Shown here: positions 3,939-4,349 of the stretch, piece by piece
Position numbering within the stretch: position 1 is the first letter of the stretch
How the letters are laid out: every line of letters begins with the position of its first letter
IMG/VR virus record: IMGVR_UViG_2617270964_000016
Location: 1-37,320 of that record
Source of the DNA: a virus
Taxonomy: Duplodnaviria; Heunggongvirae; Uroviricota; Caudoviricetes
DNA: 37,320 bases
Direction: 5' to 3' (one strand)
Notes under the pieces: generated by a model
Databases searched by the model: none
Told to the model about the DNA's origin: nothing
What the model saw: the letters and a program-made list of their open reading frames with translations, nothing else
Program-made: the position numbers and the translations under genes

Positions 3939-4349
3939 TCAATATGCAAAATAGACCGTTGCCACGCCGTTATAGTGATCAAACGATACGGCGTTTACTT
4001 CATAGCTGGCAGGGAGCTTCGAGCCGAGAACATATCCGGGCCACGTTTTCCATGGAATTTCTCTATTCTCACTACCCCCATATACCGTACATCCAAGTGA
4101 ACCTACAGCCTCGTCAGAACGTTTGCCGCATGTTATGAAACCTATATTTTTCTTGCCGGTCTTAATGGCGATTGGGTGAACGCTGGCTGATGCATTGGCA
4201 GCACGCTGTGACTGTTGGTTTGCGATATTCGCAGAGTTCGCAGCAGCTACAGCAGCCGTGGTCGCGGCGGTAGATGCCACAATAACTGCTGAAGCCTGCG
4301 CCTGTTGGGTAATGGTCAGCAATGCCGCCACAAAAATCATCTTCTTCAC
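3939..4349 (-). CDS. Secreted/periplasmic small protein with cleavable signal peptide
   Basis: GTG 4349 with AAGGAG Shine-Dalgarno gives MKKMIFVAALLTITQQAQA-SAV, a classical n/h/c signal peptide with AQA cleavage motif. Low-complexity Ala/Thr region, then a Cys-containing C-terminal domain. Confidence 0.4.
   Translation of the reverse strand: MKKMIFVAALLTITQQAQASAVIVASTAATTAAVAAANSANIANQQSQRAANASASVHPIAIKTGKKNIGFITCGKRSDEAVGSLGCTVYGGSENREIPWKTWPGYVLGSKLPASYEVNAVSFDHYNGVATVYFAY

Follow-up and report, generated by a model that had tools for sequence, protein, structure and literature searches.

Exported proteins made early in infection are among the few tools by which phages can alter the cell envelope from within, and the characterised examples, Spackle of phage T4 and Llp of phage T5, have brought to light ways of blocking DNA entry and receptors. 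Spackle (Sp), made early and located in the periplasm, inhibits the tail lysozyme gp5 and thereby prevents superinfection (PMC7677548), and the lipoproteins T5 Llp and Cor mask receptors for superinfection exclusion (PMC9586334). In addition, the DUF1471/YhcN/BhsA-McbA proteins (PF07338) have been described as small periplasmic stress proteins of enterobacteria (PMC4092069).

Here we studied a gene located at positions 3939-4349 on the minus strand of a window of 37,320 nucleotides, which is an E. coli prophage of the e14/CPS-53-like type. Like Spackle, the encoded protein is small, has a signal peptide and derives from an early gene, and it is presumed to act alone in the periplasm; no sequence or fold similarity between the two was detected. 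With T5 Llp and Cor it appears to have in common that a single accessory gene of the phage is expressed early and that its exported product is directed at the envelope. However, Llp and Cor are lipoproteins with a lipobox cysteine, whereas our protein has no Cys in or beside its signal peptide, and they mask a receptor, whereas the phages carrying the present family have unrelated tails, making one shared receptor unlikely. Searches of PHROG, 50,697 phage records, the PDB and BFVD showed no sequence or fold homology to T4 Sp or Imm, T5 Llp, Cor, P1 Sim or P22 SieA. Likewise, PF07338 (DUF1471/YdgH_BhsA-like) matched none of 36 family members at E <= 10, and in hhalign comparisons with six verified DUF1471 proteins the signal peptides alone aligned.

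A sequence-only reading of this DNA had described a secreted product as unusual among early phage genes, which is a fair remark, but such a protein is unremarkable as a kind, since exported early proteins have precedents in T4 Spackle and T5 Llp. What takes the gene beyond routine annotation is the combination of a protein that has no detectable fold or sequence relative, clean cassette boundaries across phage lineages and a hypervariable, probably disulfide-closed loop.

A closed enterobacterial protein family

The protein matches phrog_8805 over its full length (profile positions 1-136 of 136, E = 7e-85) and no other PHROG. This family is already catalogued, yet only under the annotation 'unknown function' and without a characterised member. 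Neither Pfam nor NCBIfam gave a match for the protein, the defence models of PADLOC-DB 2.0 did not match it at E <= 0.1, and a literature search for phrog_8805 and for the homologue accession WP_000738193 found no paper naming either.

A word-indexed search of 5.8 billion proteins returned 56 clusters, all of them at least 68% identical to the target, while HMMER, run exhaustively over 1.84 billion representatives, returned 18 proteins, including four long eukaryotic repeat proteins that we judged to be chance matches inflated by repetition. Two BRCA2-like proteins (P0070 and P0072) with many 'NIGFIKCGSKESVG' repeats reached E-values down to 1e-7 against the family profile, and the likeness of these repeats to the 'NIGFITCGKRSDEAVG' of the family is probably chance amplified by repetition. 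Two further profile searches reached a plateau at about 110 homologue clusters; one of them, restricted to the domain to stop Ala-rich words from crowding out candidates, returned the same closed family. Its members are single-domain proteins of 109-142 aa, a few of them annotated with spurious N-terminal extensions, and no fusion of the family domain to another domain was found among the roughly 110 clusters of the profile searches.

The family is confined to phages of Enterobacterales, its members coming from Escherichia, Salmonella, Shigella, Citrobacter, Cronobacter and Rahnella as well as from phage contigs. Among complete E. coli genomes, 64 of 5,426 carry the gene, 47 of its loci being chromosomal and 20 plasmid-borne; it is also carried by 66 of 72,556 PLSDB plasmids, of which all those listed are 85-110 kb in size and non-mobilizable, and by five of the 50,697 phage records, in which tblastn recovered family members only. 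Among 185,579 species-representative genomes a single one carries it: the locus (L079, JAFAFN010000164.1) lies on a contig of 3.2 kb that was binned as 'Actinomycetes bacterium', its copy shares 97% identity with the E. coli gene, and the contig is probably mis-binned enterobacterial or phage DNA.

Coding evidence, predicted export and domain structure

The coding sequence (3939-4349, minus strand) comprises 136 codons and a TGA stop at 3941-3939. Its GTG start (4349-4347) is preceded by the Shine-Dalgarno sequence AAGGAG at 4362-4357, 7 nt upstream, and overlaps, in a GTGA motif (4346-4349), the TGA stop (4348-4346) that ends ORF 4346-5071 upstream, an overlap suggestive of translational coupling of the target gene to that ORF. 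The same 411-nt reading frame was called by PGAP in homologous E. coli loci on both chromosomes and plasmids. In pairwise comparisons with homologues of 86-91% nucleotide identity, dN/dS was 0.15-0.3 over the whole gene and 0.02-0.10 over codons 99-136, and judged by these ratios the ORF is a genuine protein-coding gene under purifying selection.

The GTG start and its AAGGAG motif had already been proposed from the sequence of this one locus; the GTGA overlap and the use of GTG at 52 of 72 homologous loci now substantiate them. The in-frame ATG that had been considered as the alternative start is codon 4 of the target (4340-4338). Furthermore, the homologue KW1E_UTAR does not contain any Met in the whole protein; it can therefore start only at its GTG and necessarily includes the signal peptide.

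The signal peptide comprises aa 1-19 (4293-4349, minus strand), so that the product begins with MKKMIFVAALLTITQQAQA followed by SAV. We called it by rules for the n-region, the core and the AxA site together with comparison among homologues. The n-region, M-K-K, is positively charged with two Lys, as is usual for Sec and signal peptidase I substrates; the hydrophobic core MIFVAALLTI has 10 residues, within the typical Sec range of about 7-15 and not long enough to span a membrane, with a best 9-residue Kyte-Doolittle mean of 2.94, and is followed by polar TQQ; and A17-Q-A19 ahead of S20 provides small residues at -3 and -1 with no Pro at +1. A signal peptidase I cut after A19 is predicted. The lipobox pattern [LVI][ASTVI][GAS]C is absent from the target, which has no Cys before residue 74, and there is no Tat twin-arginine motif, the n-region MKK being devoid of RR.

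An equivalent segment is found in every full-length homologue listed, with one to three K/R residues ahead of the hydrophobic core and with AQA, SHA, ANA, GKA or ARA at the site corresponding to the AQA of the target. Homologues down to 35-40% identity keep the N-terminal K/R, the hydrophobic core and the AxA site in sequences that have otherwise diverged, e.g., MKKIVIALSLALLTSTAANA ahead of VVI, MKRLLIAGLILASFQTQA ahead of VVV and MKHVIIAMGLASAALSFAGQAQA ahead of AY. Such conservation of properties and not of letters is the usual way in which signal peptides evolve. One UniRef source names a family member 'Prophage exported protein'.

The textbook Sec signal peptide that the sequence-only reading had seen is well supported in silico, by its M-K-K, its 10-residue core, its A-Q-A and its conservation in homologues. 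Because the signal peptide is kept in kind across subfamilies, the GTG start of KW1E_UTAR is obligatory and the domain contains an invariant Cys pair, the protein is almost certainly exported to the periplasm. A crude signal-peptide filter was passed by three of the 58 non-overlapping ORFs of the window, namely the target and two ORFs that are not part of the early-left operon; these two, 15568-15741 and 16893-17273 on the plus strand, are the only others in the window for which the filter indicated signal-like or membrane-anchor-like N-termini. In the P0078 subfamily (e.g., 6001-6405 of locus L006), which consists of 134-aa paralogues on P1-like plasmids, the signal peptide contains a lipobox-like LSAC or LSSC; in certain members LSAS takes its place, and a lipoprotein character is therefore not conserved in this subfamily.

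We also considered an in-out hairpin, in which the signal and the Ala-rich segments would both span the membrane and the domain would remain cytoplasmic. This topology was rejected because subfamilies that do not have the second, Ala-rich hydrophobic stretch carry the same domain with its Cys pair.

The mature protein is organised as had been read from the letters, with a low-complexity Ala/Thr-rich stretch followed by a Cys-containing domain. The first part, aa 20-58 (4176-4292, minus strand), is a linker rich in Ala, Thr, Ser, Asn and Gln that is predicted to be helical with low to moderate confidence; its length varies among homologues, and some subfamilies do not have it at all. The second part, aa 59-136 (3942-4175, minus strand), is a globular domain with a predicted b-b-b-b-a-b-b order of secondary structure at a pLDDT of about 90. 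Its two Cys, Cys74 and Cys87 (segment 4089-4130, minus strand), are invariant, likely close a disulfide loop and fit an oxidising compartment, i.e., a periplasmic disulfide.

The framework of the domain is nearly invariant, with the motifs GF[VI]TCG, SLGC, IPW, PGYxLG, LPASY and D..YN..AT.YF.Y, and two stretches are hypervariable, residues 76-83 between the two Cys and residues 88-97 in a predicted hairpin. In the lineage of Escherichia phage Av-05, dN/dS is about 1 over codons 59-98, as against the 0.02-0.10 of codons 99-136.

An earlier AlphaFold model from a shallow alignment was unusable (pLDDT 47). The AlphaFold2 model used here was built for the mature protein from 36 diverse sequences and is of moderate overall confidence (pLDDT 81, pTM 0.60); it shows a long, less confident helix for the poorly defined spacer and then the b-b-b-b-a-b-b domain. 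A Foldseek search of the PDB with this model gave nothing at E <= 0.001, the BFVD search returned only a member of the target's own family, and sequence searches of the PDB with two profiles (A2 and A6) gave nothing under E = 0.4. Spackle is a helical protein, and the domain of the target is predicted to be mostly beta.

Genomic setting and mobility

The immunity region of the prophage includes a Peptidase_S24 repressor gene (7666-8340, minus strand) and a CII-like gene, and a homologous locus is annotated with ymfK, ymfT, ymfL, yfdP, a YfdQ family gene and yfdR. Downstream of the repressor gene lies a terminator-like hairpin (7654-7637, minus strand), and just 3' of both is a strong sigma-70-like site, TTGACA-16-CATAAT (7627-7600, minus strand), which is the probable early-left promoter driving the operon that contains the target gene. 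A crude consensus scan, by which weak promoters could be missed, found no promoter-like site on the minus strand between 4350 and 7627-7600.

The gene itself lies in tight array with a phrog_614-type ORF on one side and a phrog_6026/Ea22-like ORF on the other, the next ORF beginning 8 nt downstream. The consensus scan gave no promoter-like site of its own, nor does it have a terminator of its own, whereas a classical moron would have both. Owing to this tight packing and the lack of a promoter-like site before the gene, we regard it as part of a repressor-controlled early-left operon; its placement there in the earlier reading holds, as it is co-directional with its neighbours and lies downstream of the 7627-7600 site.

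On the strand opposite to this operon, the left edge of the window contains an ORF with a SocA/Panacea antitoxin domain (1-474, plus strand; PF13274, E = 5.9e-18), followed by an ORF of 182 aa (496-1044, plus strand) that matches no family and has hydrophobic segments at its C-terminal end; the two may form a Panacea-type toxin-antitoxin or defence pair. An IS3-type transposase ORF (36439-37320, minus strand; rve, rve_3, HTH_21) reaches the right edge.

Two shared blocks of different size delimit the unit that is exchanged. By blastn, the minimal block common to Mu-like prophages (L015-L017) extends from 3920 or 3935 to 4363 on the minus strand with 86-89% identity and includes the target gene and its ribosome-binding site, with the AAGGAG motif inside it, and nothing else. 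A larger block of 1,046 bp (3546-4591, minus strand) is shared at 98.6-98.8% identity with the P1-like phage-plasmid pKOr024_2 (L002) and another e14-like prophage (L001). On one side it reaches into the 3' end of the upstream gene and on the other into the 5' part of the Ea22-like gene downstream, and its near-identity suggests that the gene was exchanged recently along with the ends of flanking Ea22-type genes.

Homologues are found on very different backbones. In e14-like prophages (the window and L001) they lie in the early-left operon, in a lambdoid prophage (L014) after the replication gene P and a DUF1064 gene, and in Mu-like prophages (L013, L015-L017) in the early region just before gemA/mor. 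P1-like phage-plasmids (L002, L006-L009, L018) carry them in a long co-directional accessory run that ends at humD and phd/doc, and virulent siphophages of 45 kb (L003, L005, L010) between a C5 methylase and the terminase. A further copy is present in Escherichia phage Av-05 (L004, KM190144.1, 66.5-76.8 kb). This 121-kb phage of the Vequintavirinae has a run of lambdoid-style accessory genes, including an eae-like gene and the target homologue, and the run either was acquired by genuine horizontal transfer or is an assembly artefact in which prophage DNA was joined to the phage sequence.

The homologues are co-directional within packed phage gene runs, in early regions wherever the context is identifiable, and their neighbouring genes differ among the phage backbones. 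Because the bare gene and ribosome-binding site are shared and the neighbours change with the backbone, the gene is, from these comparisons, an autonomous single-gene cassette that moves in self-contained form among unrelated phages. This pattern of a rare, closed family whose bare gene and ribosome-binding site move suggests a self-sufficient, selectable function.

Possible functions at the envelope

The analogy to T4 Spackle and T5 Llp makes superinfection exclusion a plausible role for the protein. Our main reading, to which we assign a probability of roughly 35%, is that during lytic growth it would serve in superinfection exclusion or shield the envelope from competing phages in some related way. 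The 136-aa precursor, with its 19-residue Sec signal peptide, would give a mature protein of about 117 aa, consisting of the Ala-rich spacer and the ~78-aa domain, which would be exported to the periplasm, where DsbA would close the Cys74-Cys87 loop. It would be made in lytic growth or after induction and not in the repressed lysogen. In the periplasm, the protein alone would bind an envelope-located target, its conserved scaffold displaying the two hypervariable segments 76-83 and 88-97, and would act in exclusion in the manner of T4 Spackle or T5 Llp, albeit through an unrelated fold.

That it would act alone is proposed because the block shared with Mu-like prophages holds just the gene and its ribosome-binding site, the neighbours differ and the domain is never fused to another. 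That it would act as a binder is proposed because an invariant framework carries the hypervariable segments and because of the dN/dS of about 1 over codons 59-98 in the Av-05 lineage; such a pattern of variable loops suggests an arms race. Masking of a receptor specific to the carrier phage is unlikely, since the carriers differ in their tails and probably in their receptors.

Should the protein act in exclusion, its family would provide a new structural class together with a compact, easily assayed reagent; should it not, the gene would be one more accessory gene of the mosaic Ea22-type region, of interest to annotators only. A narrower form of the exclusion reading, which we consider distinctly doubtful, is a portable periplasmic 'binder cassette', in which a disulfide-stabilised scaffold of about 78 residues would present the fast-evolving loops 76-83 and 88-97, and these loops would neutralise the envelope-crossing machinery of rival phages or a polymorphic envelope component. 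If true, it would represent a new structural class of superinfection-exclusion protein, and one common to temperate, transposable, plasmid-borne and virulent enterobacterial phages. Still more speculative is a decoy for TonB: the mature protein starts with hydrophobic residues (such as S-A-V-I-V or V-V-I-T) that are similar to the TonB-box consensus, ETVIV, and could act in this way.

The exported protein might instead be directed at the host. It may inhibit or modulate a periplasmic component of the cell and thereby condition the envelope in lytic growth, with a protease, a peptidoglycan hydrolase, an envelope-stress sensor or an envelope-located defence effector as candidate targets; we hold this to be possible but unlikely.

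Lysogenic conversion, which the sequence-only reading had offered beside superinfection exclusion, is disfavoured by the genomic setting. In this case the lysogen would produce the protein from its prophage, and the surface or fitness of the host would be altered, e.g., in its adhesion or its resistance to serum or phages. Conversion factors are numerous among the exported proteins encoded by prophages, and the copies on P1-like plasmids lie in the same long run as humD and phd/doc, some genes of which are expressed in P1 lysogens. Nevertheless, since no promoter-like site of the gene's own was found, this role is improbable: the target has neither such a site nor a terminator and appears translationally coupled within a repressor-controlled operon (with no promoter-like site in 4350-7600), the minimal mobile block brings only a ribosome-binding site besides the gene, relatives in Mu-like, lambdoid and P1-like elements lie in tightly packed runs of genes of one direction, and homologues occur in virulent phages, which form no lysogens.

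It is very unlikely that the N-terminus is something other than a cleaved signal peptide, with the protein either translated from the ATG at 4340-4338 and cytoplasmic or held by an uncleaved membrane anchor. A few database entries do start at the internal ATG, giving 133-aa versions, and the residues just past the predicted cut (AVIV) are unusually hydrophobic. Against this stand the conserved GTG with its AAGGAG motif and GTGA overlap, the predominance of GTG among the homologous loci, the Met-less KW1E_UTAR, and the invariant Cys pair combined with a universal signal-like N-terminus. Moreover, translation from the ATG would still retain the hydrophobic core and the AxA site, and with an uncleaved anchor the domain would be periplasmic all the same.

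Least probable of all is a lysis-timing regulator like the T4 RI antiholin, in which a releasable anchor would be joined to a periplasmic domain that binds the holin or senses superinfection: the weakly hydrophobic, Ala/Ser/Thr-rich 19-residue stretch aa 19-37 averages a hydropathy of 1.65, which is marginal for a membrane segment, and has a composition resembling signal-anchor-release domains, but several subfamilies that do not have the Ala-rich segment keep the domain, the gene is unlinked to lysis genes, and the lysis cassettes of the carriers differ, those of the Mu-like prophages having holins with an M15 peptidase or a GH108 enzyme and the window a different set.
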